Of a stretch of 18,613 nt of DNA, positions 5,225 through 18,613 are shown piece by piece (positions within the stretch are counted from its first letter, which is position 1; every line of letters starts with the position of its first letter). The notes below the pieces were generated by a model. It did no database searches and was not told the origin of the DNA. It saw only the letters and a program-made list of their open reading frames with translations. Location of the stretch: assembly GCA_043754515.1 (NCBI GenBank), contig JAYUUO010000023.1, positions 1 through 18,613 on the forward strand, read 5' to 3'. Source of the DNA: Armatimonadota bacterium (GTDB lineage Bacteria > Armatimonadota > Armatimonadia > Armatimonadales > Armatimonadaceae). The position numbers and the translations under genes were made by a program.

Positions 5225-5297
5225 CGGGGCGTGGCGCAGTTGGTAGCGTGCTTGTTTTGGGAACAAGAAGTCGCAGGTTCGAGTCCTGTCGCCCCGA
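5225..5297 (+). tRNA. tRNA-Pro (anticodon TGG), CCA not encoded
   Basis: Acceptor CGGGGCG/CGCCCCG, D-arm GCGC-AGTTGGTA-GCGT, anticodon stem CTTGT/ACAAG with loop TT-TGG-GA (anticodon 5258-5260), T-arm GCAGG-TTCGAGT-CCTGT, discriminator A. Confidence 0.97.
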
Positions 5298-5320: not shown

Positions 5321-5391
5321 GCGGGAGTAGTTCAATGGTAGAACTCCTGCCTTCCAAGCAGATCACGAGGGTTCGATTCCCTTCTCCCGCT
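5321..5391 (+). tRNA. tRNA-Gly (anticodon TCC), CCA not encoded
   Basis: Acceptor GCGGGAG/CTCCCGC, D-arm GTTC-AATGGTA-GAAC, anticodon loop CT-TCC-AA, T-arm GAGGG-TTCGATT-CCCTT, discriminator T. There is one C-A mismatch at the top of the anticodon stem. Confidence 0.96.
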
Positions 5392-5655: not shown

Positions 5656-6752
5656 CTACGCGCCCCCGAGCGTGCCGACGATCAGAGACTCGTACGCTGG
5701 TGCCAACCGGTATGAGCGGTTCTTGCGCGACGGGTCCTGTAGCTCCAGAAACGCATCCTTCACCCAGTCCCGGCAGAGCGCGGCCACCGTGCGCGGACTC
5801 AGAGCGAGGTGTTCCGCGATCTCGCCCGTGCTCGCCGATCCCTGTCGCTCGAAGAGTATCGGGAGCTTCCTCTCGCGCGGGTCGAGTTGGCGGAGCGTGT
5901 GGCTCCGATCCGCGCCACCGCGCGTTGCCGCCTTCGCCGCCTGCGCTCTGACCGCCGCGAACGCTCCCGCCATGCCGAGACAGAAGTAGTCCAGGAACTA
6001 CGAGACGTCGGCTTTTTCGCGCCCCATATAGTAGTTGTGCGATCCGCCGACCGCCAGCGCGTAGTAGTAGCCGTCAAAGTTTCGGGAATAATACTCCTCC
6101 AGGCTGTAGATGCCTTTCAGACCGTAGCCCGCTTTATGTAGAATCAGGGTGGTCAGGAGCCGCGCCGTTCGCCCGTTCCCGTCGTAATACGGGTGTATAG
6201 TCGCGAACTGGTAGTGTGCTAACGCCGCGATGACGGGGACGGGCAACTGGTTGCGTACCAGTTCGCCCGCAATTCATGCGACGAGATCCGCCATCAGTAC
6301 CGGCACGTCACGCGCCTCCGGGGGCATATAGACGGTGCGCCCCGAGCTACTGTCGCTGATGACATTCTGCCCGTCCCGGTACGCGCTCGGGGAAGGGCGT
6401 CCGTTCATCACAAGCCCGTGTATCCGCTGAATGTTTTTCTCGCTTATCGGCGTGGCACTTTCCGATAGTTTCTCGACCTCGAGAGCGGTGTGGTAGTAGT
6501 TCTTGACCTCGGTCTCGTCACGCTCACGTCCCGGGAAACGCGCCCCGGCGATGGCTTCGCGAACCTGCGCCTGTGTCAGTGGGTTGCCCTCAATCTGGGT
6601 GGAGTAGTGGGTCGCGGCGAGTCGGGCCGTCTCCCGTAAAGAGGTAAGCATTTCGACACCAACCGGCAATGCGATCACCGCTTGACGCGCCGCTTCGATG
6701 CTCATGAGTGACTGGGCGAGGGGCGCGGAGATGGTGAATCGCGGGAGAACAT
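5656..6752 (-). pseudogene. Fic family protein with C-terminal winged HTH, disrupted by a 1-nt frameshift near the start and two in-frame stops
   Basis: ORF pieces 6705-6274, 6246-5998 and 5973-5656 share one frame, separated by TGA (DLVA*IAGE) and TAG (ADVS*FLDYF). STQIEGN and the Fic motif HPYYDGNGRTAR are present, plus an HTH (STGEIAEHLALSPRTV). ATG 6752 gives ATG TTC TC- CCG CGA TTC ACC (MF.PRFTI), one base short of frame. Confidence 0.9.
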
Positions 6753-8161: not shown

Positions 8162-8824
8162 ATGTACTGTATTATCGTCGGCGGCGGGAACGTCGGCTAC
8201 TACCTGACGAAAGACCTGGCCGCGGCGGGGCATGAAGTCTTATTGCTCGAAAAGAACCGGGCGCGGGCGGCGCAACTGGTGGAAGAACTCGGTGATGCCG
8301 CGCTCCAGGGCGACGGTTGCGAGGTGCGGATCATGGAAGAGGTCGGGTTCGCCCGCGCCGACGTCATCGTCGCCGTCACGGGCGAGGACGAAGATAACCT
8401 GGTGGTCTGCCAGATGGCGAAGCGCAAGTTCAACGCGGCACGCACGATAGCCCGCGTTAACTCGCCCTTGAACGAGCCGCTGTTCGCGAAACTCGGCATT
8501 GACACCACGGTCTCGTCCACGCGGATCATCTTCAATCTGATCGAGCAGGAGATCGAGTCCGACCAGATCGTCCCGCTCGCCGCGCTGTCGAAGGGCAACC
8601 TGGAGATCGTCCAGATTGAGCTTTCGGATCAATCATCCGTTCCGGGGAAGCGGGTGAGCGAGGTACCGATGCCTGCCGGTGCCCATATCATCGCCTTGAT
8701 CCGCGACACTGTCGCCGTGCTCCCGACGCCCGATATGCTGCTGACGAGCGGCGACACGGTGCTGGTGCTGGTGGTCGCGGATAGGGAGGGCGAGTTGCGG
8801 CAGTCGTTCGGGGGGATGGTTTAG
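8162..8824 (+). CDS. trkA: TrkA family K+ uptake regulatory protein, RCK_N + RCK_C (CeoC-like)
   Basis: IIVGGGNVG, VTGEDEDNLV, ARVN, and a C-terminal TrkA-C (GKRVSEV...IIALIR...GDTV). RBS AGGA precedes the ATG. Confidence 0.92.
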   Translation: MYCIIVGGGNVGYYLTKDLAAAGHEVLLLEKNRARAAQLVEELGDAALQGDGCEVRIMEEVGFARADVIVAVTGEDEDNLVVCQMAKRKFNAARTIARVNSPLNEPLFAKLGIDTTVSSTRIIFNLIEQEIESDQIVPLAALSKGNLEIVQIELSDQSSVPGKRVSEVPMPAGAHIIALIRDTVAVLPTPDMLLTSGDTVLVLVVADREGELRQSFGGMV

Positions 8825-8844
8825 GGGATAGTCGTGATGCTCGC

Positions 8845-8880
8845 GGCTGGGGGGAGAGGGGCAGCGACAACCAGGCAAGC
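8845..8880 (+). repeat. Single degenerate copy of the REP-like arm seen at 5604-5639
   Basis: GGCTGGGGGGAGAGGGGCAGCGACAACCAGGCAAGC vs GGCTGGGGGGAGAGGGGTAACGACAATACGCAAGC. Confidence 0.75.
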
Positions 8881-8924
8881 GTAGGAGTTACGTTTCGGCG
8901 GCGGGGCCGCGATATACTAAGCAC

Positions 8925-9231
8925 ATGGAAGAGAACCTGCAAGTCGAAACCGTGGGCGAGGAACCGTATGCGTTTGTCCCACTCGGCGAACACATCGTGC
9001 GCGCGGTCGGCGTATGCGGCGGTCGTCCTACAGTGAAATACACCCGCATCGAAATGTCGCTACTGCTGGATAGGGTGGCACTCGGGGACAGCATGGACGA
9101 AATCGCGGGGGTACTGTAGGCGTGTTTCCCGCGAAGCCGTTGCCGAGGCGATCGTTATCGCTAGCCGGTTTTTCGCGGCGTCGCTGTCACCGCTCCCGAC
9201 TACCACGGCTGTCTTCGTGACTGCTTCGTGA
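8925..9231 (+). pseudogene. DUF433 (VapB45-like antitoxin) gene, frameshifted at the G5 run 9107-9111
   Basis: GVCGGRPTVKYTRI...LLDRVALGDSMDEIA is the DUF433 signature. The frame stops at 9119, but the shifted frame continues YCRRVSREAVAEAIVIA to TGA at 9231. TATACT lies 6 nt before the ATG. Confidence 0.78.
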
Positions 9232-9356
9232 TTGTGTTGATCGAGCCGACTCCGTCGTGGGGCGTCGAGGTCAACACACCGCTTACCCGCGCGAACGGAG
9301 ATACCGTCGAACGTGGTCCCGGTCGTCGCGAAGGTCGCTGTTCGTGGTTCTAGAGA

Positions 9357-10610
9357 ATGTATCCATCGGTGACGCAAGAACAGATTGACAAACTCATCGC
9401 CGACTGGCAACGCAAAGTCGCGGCTGCCACCGAGAATCTGCTCGCGCTTGACGATACCCCGGTGATGCAACGCATTACCGGGGGCGAAGGCATCGCCGCT
9501 CAGCCGCTGACGGGCGTGACCGCCGCGCGCGTCCTGCCCGCGCTCGCCGCGATGCGCGACCTGTTCGGACAACTGGGGACCATCGGCGATGTGGTCGAAC
9601 GGGCGAGTCGCATGCGCCGCGCGGCGAACCGACTCTGGCGGTACGACGAGGCGATGACCGCAATCGAAAAACTGCTCACAGGACCGTCCATCCCGCTCCC
9701 CGATCTCAAAACACCACTCGCCGAGCGGAACCTCCTGTCGTCTTCCGCGAGTGCGCGGGCCGTCACGCCGGAGCGTCTGTTGACGGCGATGACGGACGCG
9801 TTCGCCACCGCCCGCGACGCCGTGCTAGCCGTGGACGCGGCGTGGGAGCGGTGGGAGCCGATCCAGGACGCGTTCCATGAAAAGGAAGTCACGCTCAGCG
9901 AGCAGTGCGAATCGCTCGGTCTGCCCCCGCCGCCGCAACTGATCGCGGCGCGAGGCGGGATCGCTGACCTCGGGCGGCGAGTCAAAAGCGATCCGCTCGG
10001 CATCACCGCGAGCGTCGAGCGGGACCTTTCCCTGTCGCTCACCGCCGCCCGGACCGCCATCGAGTCGGAACGTAGCGAACGCGAAGCGGTTGCCACGGGT
10101 CTGCTCGCGGCGCGACAACTGCTAACAAGTATCGCGGCGGAAGAGGCCGCCGTCGCCGACTCCTGCGCCGCCTGCGCGGCGGCACTGGAGATGGAGGGCG
10201 GCGACGCGGCGGCGCAACCGGGCGCGGGCGTCGCGCGTCTACAGGAATTAGAGGGGTGGCTGGTGTCGCTCGAAGGATCGGCGCGGGAAAAACGGTGGCA
10301 GGCGGTCGCGGTCGGCTTGGGCCGCTGGACGCAAGGCGCGAACGCTCTGCGCGCTTCCCTGGCGTCCGCCCGGAAGACGAACCAGGCGTTAGTCGAGATG
10401 CCCGCCGAGCTACGAGGACGGCATGCGGTTCTGCTCGCCCGGATGCGTGCGCTGGGGACGAGTGACCCGACGCTGACGCGGCTTGCCCTCCAGGCGCGGA
10501 CACTGCTCGACGAGCCGCGCGTGCCGCTCGAGCGGGCGACGAAACTGATCGAAGTGTGTGAGGAGCGGTTGCGCCGCGAGAGCGGCGCGAGAATGGAAAT
10601 GCACCAATGA
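9357..10610 (+). CDS. Uncharacterised all-helical/coiled-coil protein of the kind found before PknG-like kinases
   Basis: 417 aa, Ala/Leu/Arg/Glu-rich with no TM segment. NLLALDD...LTGVT, VKSDPLG and ELRGR motifs recall the hypothetical protein preceding Streptomyces PknG-like kinases. ATGA overlap with the kinase gene. Confidence 0.8.
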   Translation: MYPSVTQEQIDKLIADWQRKVAAATENLLALDDTPVMQRITGGEGIAAQPLTGVTAARVLPALAAMRDLFGQLGTIGDVVERASRMRRAANRLWRYDEAMTAIEKLLTGPSIPLPDLKTPLAERNLLSSSASARAVTPERLLTAMTDAFATARDAVLAVDAAWERWEPIQDAFHEKEVTLSEQCESLGLPPPPQLIAARGGIADLGRRVKSDPLGITASVERDLSLSLTAARTAIESERSEREAVATGLLAARQLLTSIAAEEAAVADSCAACAAALEMEGGDAAAQPGAGVARLQELEGWLVSLEGSAREKRWQAVAVGLGRWTQGANALRASLASARKTNQALVEMPAELRGRHAVLLARMRALGTSDPTLTRLALQARTLLDEPRVPLERATKLIEVCEERLRRESGARMEMHQ

Positions 10611-12781
10611 GCTGCCAGCGGGCCGGATGCGGCGGAACGATTGTGGACGGTTATTGCGACACCTGTGGGCGCGCCCCGGTCGGGGCGGCACCGGCGGCGT
10701 CGGTCACCGCGTCTGTGGTCACTGGCGGGTCGGCCTCCGCCCGCGCTAGCGCGGCACTGTCCGGGCGCGGCAGTGTCGGCACGGCGGGATCCGGGCGAAC
10801 CGGCTCCTCCGGCTCGCGGCGCGGCTCGCGCGGCACGACGCGCCGGTCGCTCGGCGCGGGCCTGATCAACCTCGAACCGCTCCCGACCGTTGACCCGCTC
10901 CAGTCCCTGATGGCGGACCCGGTCGTGCCGGAAGGGAAGCGGTTCTGCCCCAACTGCAACGCGAGACTCAACCTCGTCAAAGGGTTCTGCCCGATGTGCG
11001 GCACCGAGTACTCGTTCGTGCCAACGCTCGCGCCCGGCGACACGCTGGCGGGGCAGTACGAAGTAAAGGGTGCCATCGCGTTCGGCGGCCTCGGCTGGAT
11101 CTACCTCGGCTGGGACACCATGCTGTCGCGCTGGGTCGTGCTGAAGGGCTTGCTCAACTCGAAGGACGCGGCGGGCGCGCAAGCCGCTGTCGCCGAACGG
11201 CAGTTTCTGGCCGCCGTAAAGCACCCGAACATCGTCGGCGTCTACAACTTCGTCACGCAGGGCACGGACGGCTACATCGTGATGGAGTACGTCGGCGGCA
11301 AGACGCTGAAGACGATCCGCAAAGAACGCGGCCCCCTGCCGGTCGCCGAAGCCATCGCTTACACCCACCGCATCCTGCTCGCGTTCGGCTACATGGAGCG
11401 GCTCGGGCTGGTCTACTGCGACTTCAAGCCGGATAACTTCATGGTCGAGGACGACGATGTGAAGTTGATTGACATGGGCGGCGTCCGGCGCGTGGACGAC
11501 ATGGACGGCGACATCTACGGCACGAAAGGCTATTCGGCACCGGAGGCAAAGGACGATCCGTCATTCACCACCGACCTGTACACCGTGGCGCGGACGCTGG
11601 CGGTGCTCGTCTCCGACTTCGCGTTCCAGGGCAGCAAGTACGAGTTCGCCTTGCCGACACCCAAAGAGGAGCCGGTGTTCGCCAGCAACGACGCGCTGTA
11701 CCGTGTACTCCTGAAGGCGACGCGCGCGAATCCCGACGAGCGGTTCCAGACGGCGGACGAGATGGCCGCGCAACTGATCGGGGTGCTCCGCGAAACCGTG
11801 GCGGCGATCGGCACGCCGCGCCCCGTGGAAAGCACTCTCTTTTCGGGCGACAACGCCGAGGCGGTGGACGACCCGGACGCGCTCGATGTACGCGCCCTCC
11901 CCGCGCCTAAGCCCGACCCGCAGGACCCGGCGGCGGGCACTATCATCGCCGCCGCGTCCCTGACCGACCCCGATCAGGTCGCCGCGCAGTTCGAGCAGGC
12001 ACTAGCACGGTTCCCCGAATCGGTCGAGGCGCCGCTCCTGCTCGCCCGCGCACGGATCGGGCAGAAACGCTGGGAGGACGCCGAGAAGTTGCTGAAGGAC
12101 GTCCACGAGAGCGACCCGTTCGATTGGCAGGTGACGTGGTTGCGGGGCCTGTCGGCGTTCGCGCGGGGGCAATACAAGGAGGCGCGTTCCGCGTTCGACG
12201 CCGTGTACAGCGAGGTTCCTGGCGAACTCGCCCCGAAACTCGCGTTGGGGTTCGCCGCCGAAGCGTCGGGTGACATCCCGACTGCCGCCGCGCTGTACGA
12301 CCACGTGTCGCGTACCGACCCATCGTTCACCAGCGCGGTGTTCGGGCTAGCGCGGTGCCGGACGCGGGAGAAGGACCGCGCCGGAGCGGTGGCGGCGTAC
12401 GGTCGCGTGGCCGCCACGTCGCGGCGGTACCTTCCGGCGCAGGTCGCGCTGGCACGGGCACTCGTGCGCTCCGAAATCGCGCCGCCCGGTGCCACCGAAC
12501 TCGCGCGGGCGTCGGCGACGGTGCAAGCCCTCGCGATGGAAGGGAACGCCCTGCACCAGTTGTCCGTGGAGTTGCTCCGCGCGGCGATTCGGCAGGTGGA
12601 GGCGAAGGCGATTCCCGCCGGTGCCGCCGACAATGTGCTCGGACAGCCGTTTGAAGAGAACGCCTTGCGGTTCGCCGTCGAGCGCGAGTTGCGCGCCTGC
12701 GCCCGCTACGCCAAAACGAAGGACGAGCAGATAGCCCTTGTGGACGCAGCGAACCGCGAGCGGCCGCGCACCCTGTTTTAA
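10607..12781 (+). CDS. PknG-like soluble Ser/Thr kinase (N-terminal Zn-ribbon, rubredoxin-like domain, non-RD kinase, TPR)
   Basis: CQRAGC..YCDTC, an S/G/R-rich linker, FCPNC..FCPMC, G-loop AFGGLGWIY, VVLKGL, catalytic YCDFKPDN, DMG, YGTKGYSAPE, TPR region with PGELAPKLALG, and C-terminus VDAANRERPRTLF. Confidence 0.92.
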   Translation: MSCQRAGCGGTIVDGYCDTCGRAPVGAAPAASVTASVVTGGSASARASAALSGRGSVGTAGSGRTGSSGSRRGSRGTTRRSLGAGLINLEPLPTVDPLQSLMADPVVPEGKRFCPNCNARLNLVKGFCPMCGTEYSFVPTLAPGDTLAGQYEVKGAIAFGGLGWIYLGWDTMLSRWVVLKGLLNSKDAAGAQAAVAERQFLAAVKHPNIVGVYNFVTQGTDGYIVMEYVGGKTLKTIRKERGPLPVAEAIAYTHRILLAFGYMERLGLVYCDFKPDNFMVEDDDVKLIDMGGVRRVDDMDGDIYGTKGYSAPEAKDDPSFTTDLYTVARTLAVLVSDFAFQGSKYEFALPTPKEEPVFASNDALYRVLLKATRANPDERFQTADEMAAQLIGVLRETVAAIGTPRPVESTLFSGDNAEAVDDPDALDVRALPAPKPDPQDPAAGTIIAAASLTDPDQVAAQFEQALARFPESVEAPLLLARARIGQKRWEDAEKLLKDVHESDPFDWQVTWLRGLSAFARGQYKEARSAFDAVYSEVPGELAPKLALGFAAEASGDIPTAAALYDHVSRTDPSFTSAVFGLARCRTREKDRAGAVAAYGRVAATSRRYLPAQVALARALVRSEIAPPGATELARASATVQALAMEGNALHQLSVELLRAAIRQVEAKAIPAGAADNVLGQPFEENALRFAVERELRACARYAKTKDEQIALVDAANRERPRTLF

Positions 12782-12790
12782 GAAAAATAT

Positions 12791-13918
12791 ATGCCCACTA
12801 TTTGCTCTACCTGCGGCACGCCCGCGCCGGAAAACGCCGTCTTTTGCGAGCGGGACGGGACCCGCCTCCAGAACACCGTTAGCACCCCGAGTACACCCGA
12901 CAGTCAGCACGCCGCCGCCACTTATGCGCGGACGAATGGTGCCGCGACCGCCGCCGTCGCGGTACCAGCGGGTTGCCGTTGCGGCGCGGAACCCGACCTG
13001 CGGGTGGACGGCTACTGCTCTGCCTGCGGACACAAGTGGGTCGAGCCGCGCAAGCCGCTCCCGCGCGACCACGTCGAGCGGGCGTTATCCCCCGCGTTCG
13101 GCGGCGTGACGGATAGGGGGCAACGGCACACCCGAAACGAGGACGATTTCGCGCTGTCGCTCACCGATGGGGGCGACGCCGTGATGATCGTTTGCGACGG
13201 CGTGTCGTCGTCGGAGGAGGCGGACCGCGCCTCCGCCGTCGCCGCAAAAACCATCAATGACCGTCTTTCGACCGCGAGCGCGGACAGGGAGGCCGCGCTA
13301 CGCGGGGCGATTGCCGCCGCGAATACCGCCGTTTGCGCGCTCTACAGCGCGAAGCCGGGCGCAACCTCCGCCCCGCCCGAGACGACCGTGGTCGCCGCCA
13401 TCGTACGCGGGCGCGCCGCGACCATCGCCTGGGTGGGGGACAGCCGCGCCTACTGGATTGACGGCGCGGATACCACCGCCGCGCGTCAGTTGACACGCGA
13501 CCACTCGTGGATGAACGACGTCGTAGATTCCGGCGAGATGACGATGGACGAGGCACGGGGCAATCGTCTCGCCCATGCAATCACGCGTTGCCTCGGGGCG
13601 GCGGACGACCCCGGCGGGAGCGAGCCGAGCCTGGTCTCGTTCGTGTTCCCGGAGGCGGGCGGCTTTCTGTTACTCTGTTCGGACGGCCTGTGGAACTACG
13701 CGGACTCGCTCGCCCTGATCGCGGGACTCGTCCACACCGCGCCGCGTACCGCCGACGCGGTCACCCTTTCCCGATCCCTGGTCGCGTGGGCGAACACGCA
13801 GGGCGGGCGCGACAACATCACCGCGACGTTGCTGGCGGTCCCCGCCGCGGGGCGATCGCTTCCCGCCGTAGTCGTGCGAGCGGCTCCCGCCGCGGTGCCT
13901 GAGAAAGAAAATTTATGA
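12791..13918 (+). CDS. PP2C-family Ser/Thr phosphatase with two N-terminal Zn-ribbons
   Basis: CSTC..FCERD and CRCG..YCSAC, then RNEDDF, VCDGVS, WVGDSRAY, TRDHS, LCSDGLW and GGRDNIT. Confidence 0.93.
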   Translation: MPTICSTCGTPAPENAVFCERDGTRLQNTVSTPSTPDSQHAAATYARTNGAATAAVAVPAGCRCGAEPDLRVDGYCSACGHKWVEPRKPLPRDHVERALSPAFGGVTDRGQRHTRNEDDFALSLTDGGDAVMIVCDGVSSSEEADRASAVAAKTINDRLSTASADREAALRGAIAAANTAVCALYSAKPGATSAPPETTVVAAIVRGRAATIAWVGDSRAYWIDGADTTAARQLTRDHSWMNDVVDSGEMTMDEARGNRLAHAITRCLGAADDPGGSEPSLVSFVFPEAGGFLLLCSDGLWNYADSLALIAGLVHTAPRTADAVTLSRSLVAWANTQGGRDNITATLLAVPAAGRSLPAVVVRAAPAAVPEKENL

Positions 13919-15204
13919 ATTTCCAGATCGAAGCGTTTCAGAACCCGTACCTGCCCGCCGGTACCACGCGCGTGGACGCCGTACTGACCGTCGCCGCCGC
14001 GAAGGGCGAGGGATCCGTCAGCACTGCGGCGGCGTCGGGCGGCGTGGTCGTCGGTATCATCGTGGACTGTTCCGGCTCCATGCAGGGCGACCGGATCGAG
14101 GCGGTGCGTCACGCGACGCGCCGGGCGATCACGCTCCTTGGTGCGGAGACGTACTTTTTCGTGGTCGGGTTCAGCAACACGGCGGGGGTGGTTCACCCCC
14201 TCGCGCCCGCGAACGAGGCGAACAAGGCGCGGGCGGACGCGGCGGTGCGTGCCATCGAAGCGGGGGGCGGGACCGCCATGTCCGCCGGCCTGGAACTCGC
14301 CCGGCAACAGTTCTCCGGGCTGGCGGGTGCTATCGGGCAGGCGATTTTCCTGACCGACGGCAAGAACGACGTCGGGGATGAAATGCGCCTCAATGGCGTG
14401 CTAAGCCGCTGCGAGGGGGTGTTCCAGTGCGAATGTCGCGGCGTCGGCACCGACTGGCAGGTCAAGCAGTTGCAGAAGATCGCGGCGCGACTACTAGGCA
14501 CAGCCCGCATCATCGCGGAACCGGCGGGCATGGAGGCGGACTTCGCGCAGGCCATCGGTGCGGCATCCGGGCGCGGCATCGGCAACGTCCGGCTGCGGCT
14601 TTGGACGCCGAAGACCGCTCGGGTAGTTGCAGTCAAGCAGATGAGTCCCACCATCGAGGTGCTGACGGAGCGTGGGACGCCGGTTGACGCTCAGTCGTCG
14701 GACTACCCGACCGGGGCGTGGGGCGAGGAGTCGCGCGATTACTACGTCGCCGTCGAGATGAACACGGCGGGCGATATCGGCGACGAGATGCTCGCCGCGC
14801 GCCCGTCGCTCGTTTATGACGAGGGCGGGGCGATTCGGGAGGTGAAGAACCCCGCCGCCCGGATCCTCGCGTCTTGGACGGGCGACGAGGCGTTGTCGGC
14901 GCGTATCAACGCACAGGTCGCGCACTACACGGGACAGGCGGAACTCGCCCAAACCATCCAGGAAGGTCTCGAAGCCCGCGCGAAGGGCGACGTGGACTCG
15001 GCGACGCGACTGCTCGGGCGTGCCGCGAAACTCGCCGCCGAATCGGGCAACGACGAGACTACCTCGCGCCTCAAAAAAGTGGTGGACATCGTGGACGAGC
15101 GCGAAGGCACCGTGCGCTTGAAAGGCACGGTGAAGAAGGCAGACGAGATGGATCTGGATCTCGGCTCGACCCGCACCTCCCGCGCCAAGCGTCCCTCCGC
15201 GTAA
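13915..15204 (+). CDS. von Willebrand factor A (vWA) domain protein
   Basis: MIDAS DCSGS, GGGT and LTDG; N-terminal FQNPYL; C-terminal beta and helical extension. ATGA overlap with the PP2C gene. Confidence 0.92.
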   Translation: MNFQIEAFQNPYLPAGTTRVDAVLTVAAAKGEGSVSTAAASGGVVVGIIVDCSGSMQGDRIEAVRHATRRAITLLGAETYFFVVGFSNTAGVVHPLAPANEANKARADAAVRAIEAGGGTAMSAGLELARQQFSGLAGAIGQAIFLTDGKNDVGDEMRLNGVLSRCEGVFQCECRGVGTDWQVKQLQKIAARLLGTARIIAEPAGMEADFAQAIGAASGRGIGNVRLRLWTPKTARVVAVKQMSPTIEVLTERGTPVDAQSSDYPTGAWGEESRDYYVAVEMNTAGDIGDEMLAARPSLVYDEGGAIREVKNPAARILASWTGDEALSARINAQVAHYTGQAELAQTIQEGLEARAKGDVDSATRLLGRAAKLAAESGNDETTSRLKKVVDIVDEREGTVRLKGTVKKADEMDLDLGSTRTSRAKRPSA

Positions 15205-15248
15205 CGAGCGTCGCGCCGTAAAACCACCGCGCCGCGAGAAAGCACATC

Positions 15249-16004
15249 ATGCCCGAAACCCTCTATCCCTGCCCGAACGGGCACGCCTCGACCGACCCGG
15301 AATACTGCTCCGAGTGCGGCAAGAAACTGTCCGCCGGGTCTGCCGTCGCGAGCGCGGTGGGCATATCGGTAGCCCCACGGTCCGGGGGCGAACTCTGCCC
15401 CGACTGCGCGACGCCCCGCGCGACGCCGTCCGCCGTGTTCTGCGAAGTCTGCCGCTATAACTTCGTGACAAAACAGTCGTGGACGCCGAACGCGCCGCTC
15501 TCACCAGCCGTAATAGCACCCATCGTGCCCCCGTCGGTCATGCCGACCGCGCCGGTTCCCTCCCCGGAAGTCACGCCCGTTGCGGCCCCCGCCCCGACAA
15601 TGGCAACCGCGACCGATGCGCCGCGCCGCTGGGAAGCCGTCGTGGCCGTTGATCCGGCGCTCTACACCGACCCCGACCCGGCGAACCCGCTCCCCGTGGG
15701 CACGCCCGAGCGTGTCTTCCCGCTCGACTTCGCGGAGAATCTGATCGGGCGGCGAAGCGAGCGGCGCGCCATCTACCCCGAAGTGGATCTGTCCGGCGAC
15801 TCTGGCGTTTCGTCGCGCCACGCGATTTTTTACCGGGAGGCGGACGGCTCGCTCGCGCTGCTCGATGTCGGCTCGACGAACGGCACGCAGTTGAATGGGG
15901 CGGAGATCGCACCGGGCGTGCGGGTCCCGCTCAAGGACGGCGACATGGTGACGGTAGGGTGCTGGACGCGGATCACGCTCCGTGGGACGGGAGCCAAGCC
16001 ATGA
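15249..16004 (+). CDS. FHA domain protein with two N-terminal Zn-ribbons and a Pro-rich linker
   Basis: CPNGH..YCSEC and CPDC..FCEVC; FHA motifs IGRR, VSSRHA and DVGSTNGT. Confidence 0.93.
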   Translation: MPETLYPCPNGHASTDPEYCSECGKKLSAGSAVASAVGISVAPRSGGELCPDCATPRATPSAVFCEVCRYNFVTKQSWTPNAPLSPAVIAPIVPPSVMPTAPVPSPEVTPVAAPAPTMATATDAPRRWEAVVAVDPALYTDPDPANPLPVGTPERVFPLDFAENLIGRRSERRAIYPEVDLSGDSGVSSRHAIFYREADGSLALLDVGSTNGTQLNGAEIAPGVRVPLKDGDMVTVGCWTRITLRGTGAKP

Positions 16005-17374
16005 GTATGCCAGCGACTAATTCACACGCTAACCATTGGGTAACTCCTCGCCTATTGCAGGTGGCAATCGCGGCGGTAGTCCTCGCCGCGCTGCTACTTT
16101 ACCTGGCGTCCTACTTCGGAGTTCGCGCGGCGCGAGACCGGATACAGAGCATTGGCAAGGATTCCGTGCCGAGCATTATCGCGGCCGAGAAACTAAAGGT
16201 TAGCCTCGCCGATCTGGACGCGAACGTCGTGAACGAACTGATCGTCGCGAGCGGCCAAAGTCCCGCGTCCATCAAAGGGTATGTGACGGATCGCCAGGAG
16301 ATCACCGACAGCCTGATACACGCCGCCGAGAATATCACCTACGGCGACCTGGAGCGCAAGCCGATTAAGGACCTGACGAACGCCCTTTCGGCGTACGAAC
16401 GGCTGGCGATTAAGGCGCGGACGCTCCACCAGCGCAAGGACGAGCGGGGTGCCATCGCGACCTACCGGGATGCGCTGACGCAGTTGCGCGGGTCGCTTTA
16501 CCCGGCGTGCGACGCGCTTGCGAAGGCGAATAACATCGCGATGCTCCGGAAAGAAGAATCACTTGGTGCCGCGACCGGTGCCACTTCGGCATTAACTCTG
16601 CTCACCGGCGTGCTACTGCTGGTGGTCCTGGCCGGGGCGCAACTGTTCCTTTTCCGCCGCACGAACCGCGTTTTGAACCTCCCGTTGCTCGCGGCGACCG
16701 GGCTTACTGTATTAGTGCTCGCCCTGCTCGCGCGGTCGTTCGCCGTGGCGAATGGGCAGGTGCGCGTCGCCCGCGACGACGCCTTCGCGTCGCTCGCCGC
16801 GCTGTGGCAGGCGCGTGCCGCCGCGTACGACGCCAACTCGGATGAAAGCCGCTGGCTTTATGACCCGGAACGCCGCCCGCAACTGGAGAAATCGTTCCTG
16901 GACAGCACGGCGTCGCTCCTGAAACTTCCTTCCGAGCAGTCCTACGCCACGGTGACGCGGGCGGCGGCAAGCCCGACCGCGCTCCCGTCCGGCACGACCG
17001 GGTTTCTAGCCAAAGAACTGGGCAACATCACCTTCCCCGGCGAGCGTAGCGCGGCGGAAGAGACCGTGCGGGCGTGGGGGGTGTATTACGAGACCGACGG
17101 CAAGATCCGCGCCCTGGAGAATAATGGCAGTCACGCGGAGGCGGTCCAGACCGACATCGGCGTCAAAGAGGGCGATTCTAACTGGGCGTTTTTGCGGTTC
17201 GACGCCGCGCTCGACAAGACCATCGGCATTAACCAGACGGCGTTCGACGCGGCGATAAAAGAGGGGATGGGCGCGGTGAGCGGGTATGACGCGGGGCTAC
17301 CGGTCGCGGCGTTGCTGATCGCCGGGCTAGCGTTCGCGGGCGTCCTGCCGCGACTGCGCGAGTACGACGTTTAG
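16001..17374 (+). CDS. GlnX-like four-TM membrane protein with two extracytoplasmic helical-bundle domains
   Basis: TPRLL before TM1, a helical domain (SLADLDAN), TM2-RRTNRVLNLPL-TM3, a second helical domain (DANSDES), TM4 and a C-terminal PRLREY. Start set at ATG 16001, which overlaps the FHA stop (ATGA). Confidence 0.78.
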   Translation: MSMPATNSHANHWVTPRLLQVAIAAVVLAALLLYLASYFGVRAARDRIQSIGKDSVPSIIAAEKLKVSLADLDANVVNELIVASGQSPASIKGYVTDRQEITDSLIHAAENITYGDLERKPIKDLTNALSAYERLAIKARTLHQRKDERGAIATYRDALTQLRGSLYPACDALAKANNIAMLRKEESLGAATGATSALTLLTGVLLLVVLAGAQLFLFRRTNRVLNLPLLAATGLTVLVLALLARSFAVANGQVRVARDDAFASLAALWQARAAAYDANSDESRWLYDPERRPQLEKSFLDSTASLLKLPSEQSYATVTRAAASPTALPSGTTGFLAKELGNITFPGERSAAEETVRAWGVYYETDGKIRALENNGSHAEAVQTDIGVKEGDSNWAFLRFDAALDKTIGINQTAFDAAIKEGMGAVSGYDAGLPVAALLIAGLAFAGVLPRLREYDV

Positions 17375-17797: not shown

Positions 17798-18613
17798 CTA
17801 GAAGTCGCCCCCGCCGCCGAAGTCGCCTCCCCCGAAATCACCGCCTCCCCCGCCGCCGAAGTCCGCGCCGGAATCCGCGAACCCGCCGCCCGCGTCCGAG
17901 CCGAACCCGCCGTCTGCCGACTGCTCGCCATATCCACCCTGGCCGAAGAAGTCGAAGCCGCCGCTGTGATCGGGCGTCGCGTCGAACTGCCCCGCGCCGT
18001 CCCCGCCCCCGAAGCCACCCCCGCCGTATCCGGGGTTGCCTTCTTGAATCACCGGCCCGTCGTACCCGCCGCCCCAGCCGCTGTAACCCGGCCCGTAGCC
18101 CCAGCCGCCCCAGCCGCCGTACCCGCCGAAGAAGCCACCCCCGTTGAACAGGTACGAAAAAAGCATCAGGTCAACGAACGTGCCCATACCGCCGCCCACC
18201 CCGTATCCGCCGTAGTAGTTGCGGTACGGGTCGTAGCCCTGGTACTCGTACCAGGGGATGTATTGGCCGCGCCCGTCGTCGAAGGCGCGCACAGCGGGAG
18301 TCTCGCCGCGCATGATTTGAGCCGCCTCCTCACGCGTCGCCATCACTGACCGCTTCTGTCCAACGATCACGATGCTCACCGGCACCAGCGCGCTCCTCGG
18401 CAGGGGTTGCCCGCTAAAGAACGACACCCCTCGCTCGTTCTGGGGGATGCTCTCGATCTCCGCCTGGAGCCGGTCAGCGTCAGACTTGCTATGAAGCTCC
18501 TCCAGGCGGCGGAACCGCTGTGCGCGGGTCGCCTCCGTAGACAGGTCGGGTATCTCAGGAATCGCCATCGCGACGCCCGTACCGCCTGTCGCGCGGTCAA
18601 TGCTCGCGCGGCA
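17798..18613 (-). CDS. Hypothetical protein with a Tyr/Gly-rich segment and GGDF low-complexity tail; 5'-truncated by the window edge
   Basis: The frame is open from 18613 (CRASIDRATGGTGVAMAI...). It contains PWYEYQGYDPYRNYY, a hydrophobic DLMLFSYLF and a tail GGDFGGGDFGGGGDF. Confidence 0.8.
   Translation of the reverse strand, partial: CRASIDRATGGTGVAMAIPEIPDLSTEATRAQRFRRLEELHSKSDADRLQAEIESIPQNERGVSFFSGQPLPRSALVPVSIVIVGQKRSVMATREEAAQIMRGETPAVRAFDDGRGQYIPWYEYQGYDPYRNYYGGYGVGGGMGTFVDLMLFSYLFNGGGFFGGYGGWGGWGYGPGYSGWGGGYDGPVIQEGNPGYGGGGFGGGDGAGQFDATPDHSGGFDFFGQGGYGEQSADGGFGSDAGGGFADSGADFGGGGGGDFGGGDFGGGGDF

Follow-up and report, generated by a model that had tools for sequence, protein, structure and literature searches.

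PknG signalling has been studied almost only as a three-gene GlnX-GlnH-PknG operon that acts on GarA/OdhI, in Mycobacterium and Corynebacterium (PMC6069109, PMC8546545, PMC9769921 and the preprint 10.64898/2026.07.02.735984). GlnX is proposed to activate PknG through the kinase's TPR domain (PMC6069109, PMC8546545), and the 2026 preprint reports that a C-terminal Glu-Tyr, equivalent to one found here, is required for GlnX function in M. smegmatis. PknG itself has been called mostly restricted to Actinobacteria (PMC8546545), and the accessible text of the same paper mentions homologues in Ktedonobacter and Calothrix with no gene context. A second relevant system is the nutrient-linked ArnA-ArnB switch of the archaeon Sulfolobus acidocaldarius, in which adjacent genes encode a vWA protein and a zinc-finger-linker-FHA protein and which has its own kinase (ArnC) and phosphatase (PP2A; PMC6509490, PMC12852372). 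Here we describe a six-gene operon in a stretch of 18,613 nt from an Armatimonadota bacterium (contig JAYUUO010000023.1; "the window" below means this whole stretch), in which a GlnX-PknG pair is encoded together with ArnA- and ArnB-like proteins. The three-gene GlnX-GlnH-PknG pathway is already well studied; what is new is a subtype lacking both GlnH and GarA. Neither an extended nor a GlnH-less operon was found described in the literature searched, whose coverage left out most subscription journals and supplements, nor in the accessible parts of PMC1262709, PMC11032199 and the WHOOPER preprint; the operon is a real, conserved and apparently undescribed variant.

The six-gene operon and its missing partners

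The six open reading frames (ORFs) all lie on the plus strand, start with ATG and end in stop codons, with none internal. In window coordinates they are:

9357-10610, plus strand: gene 1, helical protein of 417 aa, in no Pfam or NCBIfam family and described from a predicted-structure model
10607-12781, plus strand: gene 2, PknG-family Ser/Thr kinase of 724 aa (PF16919, PF00069, PF16918; match to structure 2PZI)
12791-13918, plus strand: gene 3, PP2C phosphatase of 375 aa (PF13672/PF00481)
13915-15204, plus strand: gene 4, ArnB-like vWA protein of 429 aa (PF13768 and PF18571; match to structure 4FX5)
15249-16004, plus strand: gene 5, ArnA-like zinc-ribbon-FHA protein of 251 aa (PF12773 and PF00498)
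16001-17374, plus strand: gene 6, GlnX-family transducer of 457 aa (above the NF058618 cut-off; 4HB_MCP_1)

Absence of GlnH is the main feature of this variant, one that a preliminary description of the same DNA had not singled out. No glnH, the gene for a family-3 Asp/Glu-binding lipoprotein, lies in the window or in the 13 complete loci of relatives. The sole PF00497 match in the 92.7%-complete host genome is a 382-aa channel-type protein (L103:4046-5194, contig C262), whose family-3 binding domain is split by a ligand-gated channel domain in the manner of prokaryotic glutamate receptors; an ORF near it resembles an ammonium transporter. PF00497 has no match at all in 13 of the 23 genomes of the phylum that carry GlnX, among them two single-contig, 96%-complete genomes. 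The usual target was equally absent: OdhI (NF041660) exceeded its cut-off in none of the 23 carriers, in a search whose C. glutamicum positive control passed, and no ETTS motif occurs among the five FHA proteins found in the host genome. These results agree with the earlier proposal that output does not run through GarA. Going by the sequence searches, we assign it to a subtype of the extended PknG operon that has neither GlnH nor GarA; with both the amino-acid sensor and the target of the known pathway missing, it seems to have been rewired at the input as well as the output. A second FHA/vWA locus exists in the host, with three FHA proteins of 420-460 aa and a vWA protein (contig C84:7732-13114).

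The transducer scores 266.5 bits against NF058618 (cut-off 250) but falls far under the cut-off of the narrower equivalog NF041460 (38.8 against 780). It has four membrane segments, two periplasmic four-helix bundles (model with a predicted local distance difference test score, pLDDT, of 96) and the C-terminal Glu-Tyr, within a cytoplasmic tail motif R451-x-x-E454-Y455. R223, R451 and E454 are kept in all 30 GlnH-less and all 10 GlnH-linked GlnX proteins compared, and Y455 in 28 and 10, respectively. By contrast, the periplasmic motifs N111-I-T-Y and N342-I-T-F-x-G-E348 mark the subtype: N111, T113, E118, N177, N279, N342, E348, D366 and N411 are each present in 26 to 29 of the 30 GlnH-less proteins and in none of the 10 GlnH-linked ones. 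Because the cytoplasmic residues are shared and these nine periplasmic polar residues are class-specific, the output side of GlnX is conserved and its input side has changed. The closest folds include LytS (Z 18.1, root-mean-square deviation (rmsd) 1.3 over 120 aligned residues), MCP2201 (Z 17.0), NasR (Z 17.0, rmsd 4.3 over 277 aligned), PcaY, McpN and TorS; LytS and TorS are binding-protein-dependent sensors, and MCP2201, NasR, PcaY and McpN bind ligand directly. A longer glnX starting from a GTG at 15959 was dropped, as the coupled ATG at 16001 aligns with the starts of homologues.

Gene 2 matches rubredoxin (PF16919, 6e-17), kinase (PF00069, 2e-27) and PknG_TPR (PF16918, 2e-64) families and aligns with the M. 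tuberculosis PknG structure 2PZI over residues 81-724 (E 5e-131). Its catalytic residues K180, E197, D272, N277 and D289 are invariant among 41 sequences, its catalytic loop is of the non-RD type and it has no hydrophobic segment. With rubredoxin, kinase and TPR domains all in place, gene 2 is a true PknG. It begins with an extra zinc ribbon and a Ser/Thr/Arg-rich linker, a ribbon seen in all 42 kinases with a locatable anchor motif (of 48 aligned), and a Ser/Thr pair is kept immediately ahead of the kinase RRxLGAG motif. The operon thus shares with the GlnH-GlnX-PknG-GarA/OdhI pathway a PknG of three domains and a GlnX that crosses the membrane four times and bears two periplasmic four-helix bundles and a conserved C-terminal Glu-Tyr, both encoded in one operon. 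It differs in lacking glnH and GarA/OdhI, in four extra conserved genes, in the additional kinase ribbon, in carrying glnX last rather than first, in the subtype-specific GlnX periplasmic motifs and in residing in a diderm outside Actinomycetota.

The remaining enzymes and readers resemble the archaeal switch. The vWA protein aligns end to end with PDB 4FX5 (residues 3-426, E 7e-89), which shares the three-part architecture and the MIDAS (metal-ion-dependent adhesion site) of archaeal ArnB (PMC6509490). It is laid out as beta-sandwich, vWA domain and C-terminal helical bundle (PF18571, VWA_3_C), with the vWA domain inserted in the sandwich as in ArnB, and its MIDAS is intact and invariant (D51-S53-S55, T120, D148). 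In an alignment of 197 sequences the C-terminal tail motif S418-T419-R420-T421-x-R423 stands out: S418 is conserved in 188, T419 in 173, T421 in 192 and R423 in 187 of the 192 sequences with a residue at the T421 column. Two further threonines are widely kept (T364 in 193 and T382 in 180 of 194), and on this conservation T421 is our candidate phosphosite. The adjacent gene 5 encodes two zinc ribbons, a Pro/Ala linker and an FHA domain, the ArnA layout, with intact phosphothreonine-binding residues (G167-R168, S188-x-x-H191 and N211-G212-T213, invariant columns in 15 sequences) and no GarA-type ETTS motif. Its second ribbon aligns with the rubredoxin region of the kinase (hhalign 89%, 27 columns). 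The PP2C likewise has two N-terminal CxxC pairs, forming zinc ribbons; its metal-site motifs TDRG, CDG, SDGL and DNIT are intact, although it stays under the NF033484 cut-off.

Common to this operon and ArnA-ArnB, then, are adjacent vWA and zinc-finger-linker-FHA genes, the beta-sandwich/vWA/helical-bundle fold with intact MIDAS, PF18571 and conserved C-terminal threonines, and a dedicated kinase and phosphatase. Here, in contrast, the system is bacterial, a PknG serves as kinase and a PP2C as phosphatase, and one operon encodes both of these ribbon-tagged enzymes. There are two ribbons on the FHA protein, and the module is joined to a membrane transducer.

Neither Pfam nor NCBIfam gave a match for gene 1, and its 98 homologues carry names from Armatimonadota, Cyanobacteria and Actinomycetota. 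Its model (pLDDT 93) is a soluble, all-helical rod of three-helix bundles, for which Foldseek gave no match at E 0.001. The best fold matches are to EzrA (Z 12.4, rmsd 3.0 over 170 aligned; Z 11.1, rmsd 11.0 over 339 aligned), scores in a range that may be generic for helical bundles, and an Atlas search returned unnamed clusters and a weak feature-based lead to EzrA (0.81, a lead only). Hydropathy reveals no membrane segment, as opposed to the N-terminal membrane anchor of EzrA and spectrin-repeat proteins. From the model, gene 1 is a probable spectrin/EzrA-like rod that would act as a scaffold.

Distribution, gene order and the slot after glnX

Junctions within the operon are tight: -4 (ATGA), +9, -4, +44 and -4 nt, in order. 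The preliminary description had read six intact, co-oriented genes with these overlaps and gaps, encoding a kinase, a PP2C, an FHA protein, a MIDAS-bearing vWA protein, a helical partner and a membrane sensor; ORFs and junctions bear out the first reading and domain searches the second, and its notion of a self-contained writer, eraser and reader module in a non-actinobacterial diderm is supported as well. Each gene is single-copy in the 5.13-Mb host assembly. Against one relative the ratio of nonsynonymous to synonymous substitution rates (dN/dS) is 0.08-0.20 for all six genes, rough values given a dS of 1.1-2.6, near saturation; purifying selection on the operon, inferred earlier from its intactness, is supported by these estimates. 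The genome encodes LpxC, and among named sequences the vWA protein is closest to those of Armatimonadaceae (77-83% identity); on these two grounds we infer that the host is a lipopolysaccharide-bearing member of Armatimonadota.

GlnX exceeds its cut-off in 23 of 401 genomes of the phylum, spread over three families. Gene 1 was found in 22 genomes and a strong PknG_TPR match (E below 1e-54; the next at 1e-10) in 20, all within the 23 carriers. Whether the six genes keep company elsewhere, a question raised in the preliminary description, is answered by the loci of relatives: 13 of 19 are complete with the same six-gene order, five are cut by contig ends but consistent, and one is broken up. In that last genome, G145, pknG, a vWA-x-FHA-glnX run and the helical gene lie at three places (L047:9587-11821, L095:8944-13041 and L189:5909-7240); upstream of its lone pknG stands a gene whose 1140-aa product joins helix-hairpin-helix, FtsW/RodA and penicillin-binding transpeptidase domains (L047:12286-15708). 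Two genomes, G261 and G374, have a stand-alone second glnX with no adjacent kinase or binding protein (L091:8642-10021; L100:2190-3551).

We also scanned metagenomes with the vWA alignment, as that of gene 1 has no stretch conserved enough for locus scans, and mapped 47 loci of at least 4 kb among the best 80 of 580 confirmed matches. The query is weighted to cyanobacterial-type sequences and the loci carry no taxon names, so that the counts are no census. In eleven loci (GC 0.38-0.60) all six genes stand in this order, with glnX at the end and no gene of GlnH or NMT1 type; 10 of the 11 extend at least 1 kb past glnX. Ten others (GC 0.68-0.72) have glnX-glnH ahead of the core, and the remainder are partial or rearranged. 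This seven-gene operon, glnX-glnH-helical-pknG-PP2C-vWA-FHA, contains all six genes and the same core order from the helical gene to FHA; the Armatimonadota operon differs from it in having no GlnH, in glnX at the end, in a separate kinase branch and in other GlnX periplasmic residues. For genes 1 and 4, named homologues were found in Calothrix, Scytonema, Microcoleus, Hassallia and several actinomycetes, and related extended clusters, which the preliminary description mentioned from Streptomyces, do occur in actinobacteria. A plasmid collection yielded five kinase records and one vWA record, all actinobacterial, the latter on an 11.9-Mb replicon.

Arrangement varies among these loci. L181:3-13097 holds tandem pknG modules, glnX-glnH-pknG followed by glnX-helical-pknG-PP2C-vWA-FHA-PP2C, and a second PP2C gene 3' of the FHA gene recurs in several high-GC loci. 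L160:5633-12331 has a permuted GlnH-less order, vWA-FHA-glnX-helical-pknG, with a 399-aa helical gene ahead, and a low-GC locus has two tandem glnX genes 3' of the FHA gene (L107:11919-14899).

The position following glnX is modular. It is occupied by a family-3 binding protein in Nonomuraea, within the same six-gene order, and by none in the host. In five genomes of one Armatimonadota family, f2 (G112, G341, G346, G326 and G263), an NMT1/SsuA-type binding protein is encoded directly 3' of glnX (L093:7005-16609, L094:1086-11714, L055:1711-15784, L050:4064-15708 and L098:529-3039); four of the five have a lipobox pattern, and in two cases the gene overlaps glnX by 4 nt. The glnX-linked copies are 76-93% identical among themselves. 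Each of the five genomes has a second copy, 67-79% identical to this set, which adjoins ABC transporter genes in the loci examined. In G112 the whole cassette follows the transporter, beside genes for urea carboxylase, allophanate hydrolase and UAAP1/2, and the carboxylase operons of G326 and G263 contain a second glnX each. According to the review PMC12186494, guanidine is the preferred substrate of about 75% of carboxylases of this type, and ABC importers supply them; a cyanobacterial guanidine-binding importer has been described (PMC12704784). The binding protein itself has no solved relative at E 1e-8. Sequence and context suggest that the f2 protein was duplicated from the urea/guanidine-carboxylase transporter and may represent a swapped sensor. 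The only conserved gene link that we found thus points to nitrogen uptake, a hint from one lineage at the kind of signal and not at the host's ligand.

Both flanks of the operon are decayed, as the preliminary description had stated. Upstream lies a DUF433 gene (window 8925-9170) whose alignment to an 89-aa paralogue shifts frame near 9105-9110; one public contig has a 2-base insertion at 9111, and the frameshift may vary between strains. Downstream, a 125-aa ORF with weak amino-acid permease matches only is a short permease-like remnant. No sigma-70 promoter or terminator match was found in window 8800-9400, and an Rfam scan of the window returned only two tRNA genes (5225-5297 and 5321-5391), some 260 nt upstream of a Fic-family gene in several pieces (5656-6705, minus strand). 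At 17798-18568, minus strand, a 256-aa ORF has a C-terminal half very rich in Gly, Tyr and Phe and no Pfam or NCBIfam match.

A probable phospho-switch and its rivals

On balance, we think it probable that the operon encodes a transmembrane phospho-switch for nitrogen or another nutrient. In it PknG, switched on by GlnX, would phosphorylate the tail of the vWA protein; the FHA protein would be the reader of this mark and PP2C its eraser. A ligand would shift the paired periplasmic bundles of GlnX, by acting on them itself or by way of a binding protein other than GlnH, and the cytoplasmic tail, by homology to the studied pathway, would tether and activate PknG through its TPR domain. In the ArnA-ArnB switch, unphosphorylated ArnB is bound weakly by the zinc finger of ArnA, whereas phosphothreonines in the C-terminal bundle of ArnB are bound by the FHA domain (PMC12852372). 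By analogy, PknG may phosphorylate threonines of the vWA bundle or tail, T421 first; the zinc-ribbon-FHA protein, loosely docked by its ribbon, would then clamp the vWA protein by FHA-phosphothreonine binding, with PP2C resetting the switch. The similar ribbons of kinase and phosphatase may dock both on the same hub. In the least certain step, the vWA/FHA complex, scaffolded on the helical rod, would control a cellular target through the MIDAS.

Several observations weigh against this phospho-switch or the evidence for it. ArnA is absent from the 10 sequence matches of gene 5, leaving its ArnA homology as one of architecture, and the NIT[YF] motifs of GlnX fall in membrane-proximal loops on our helix map and could be structural rather than part of a ligand pocket. 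A PF00497 domain does occur in 10 of the 23 carriers, though only in frames of 400-622 aa. The genes scattered in G145 mean that co-transcription is not required. As for nitrogen, the guanidine riboswitch stayed below the Rfam cut-off at the f2 urea-carboxylase loci, and the f2 association, seen in one family and two genera, may be a single lineage-specific event and possibly positional. The guanidine/urea link does not apply to the host, whose genome encodes nothing closely related to the f2 binding protein (one unrelated NMT1 protein is present) and no urea carboxylase above cut-off. Finally, a separate subtype is supported by a tree of 48 kinases, in which a long branch (Shimodaira-Hasegawa-like approximate likelihood-ratio test, SH-aLRT, 100) divides 34 sequences, from Armatimonadota or from loci of the six-gene type, from 13 GlnH-linked ones and the 18 Armatimonadota kinases group together (SH-aLRT 98), but this tree comes from a quick, unrooted search without bootstrap, and 4 of its 16 'six-gene' rows (L106, L120, L122 and L140) are cut by contig ends, so that this label is not fully verified.

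A less likely account is an envelope- or membrane-stress switch, with GlnX sensing membrane or periplasmic stress or only tethering PknG constitutively, and the Sec23/24-like vWA protein and the rod acting on envelope remodelling or cell shape. The lack of a binding protein beside glnX in most loci would fit, as would the EzrA-like fold of gene 1 and the helical gene upstream at L160, which looks TelA-like; basal PknG activity from GlnX without GlnH has, moreover, been proposed (10.64898/2026.07.02.735984). However, the two full sensor-type bundles of GlnX, with their many conserved polar residues, are more than a tether needs, the partner gene after glnX, where present, encodes a solute-binding protein, and the EzrA match lies within the range of generic helical bundles.

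Canonical metabolic control in trans, in which GlnX takes its input from a diverged binding protein encoded elsewhere and an FHA protein, that of the operon or another, acts as GarA on enzymes of central metabolism, strikes us as improbable. It draws on the conservation of PknG and of the GlnX tail, on the Ser/Thr pair before RRxLGAG, which resembles the sites where PknG of mycobacteria and corynebacteria autophosphorylates for FHA docking, and on a genome that is 92.7% complete and holds that one NMT1 protein. Set against these are the missing ETTS motif and OdhI and the 13 carriers with no PF00497 match; nor does this account explain why the vWA, PP2C and helical genes are so strictly retained.

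The preliminary description had also entertained a role in defence or conflict, with kinase, PP2C and vWA protein forming an anti-phage or toxin-stress switch of the TerY-P kind. TerY-P (vWA-PP2C-kinase) is defined by a TerY-type vWA protein and a kinase that carries a fused zinc ribbon or OB fold at its C-terminus (PMC10542128), and the vWA, PP2C, Ser/Thr kinase and zinc ribbons make a common parts list; the spread of the operon is also patchy, and a type III methyltransferase and PtuAB flank two of 13 loci. This role did not hold up and is very improbable: the vWA protein is long, of the 4FX5, ArnB-like type and without a PADLOC match (those of the kinase are generic), gene 2 encodes a kinase of PknG type, with rubredoxin and a C-terminal TPR domain, gene order is reversed with FHA, GlnX and helical genes added, the single group of Armatimonadota kinases is as expected from inheritance with loss, no effector domain is present, most flanking genes are housekeeping ones and show no consistent restriction or tellurite link, the defence neighbours at the two loci differ (92 of 98 flanking ORFs scanned, six of L047 omitted, and no background rate to set the count against), and the 29 pattern matches in viral contigs include no relative.

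Meaning for PknG signalling

Beyond the switch itself, we raise tentatively the possibility that GlnX-PknG, rather than being an actinobacterial amino-acid pathway, serves bacteria in general as a receptor-kinase module whose input can be swapped. GlnX of this diderm subtype would then itself bind a small ligand between its bundles, and one lineage would have recruited a guanidine/urea-type binding protein. The original output would have been a bacterial ArnA/ArnB (Sec23/24-like vWA) switch, of which the mycobacterial GarA pathway would be a reduced and rewired derivative.

For the archaeal ArnA/ArnB switch, the operon offers a bacterial model. For PknG, a conserved diderm subtype makes two questions testable: whether GlnX senses a ligand alone, a possibility already raised for GlnX (PMC9769921), and what PknG phosphorylates when GarA is absent. 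To these the analysis brings a candidate substrate site (vWA Thr421), a set of subtype-specific periplasmic residues and a candidate natural sensor swap.

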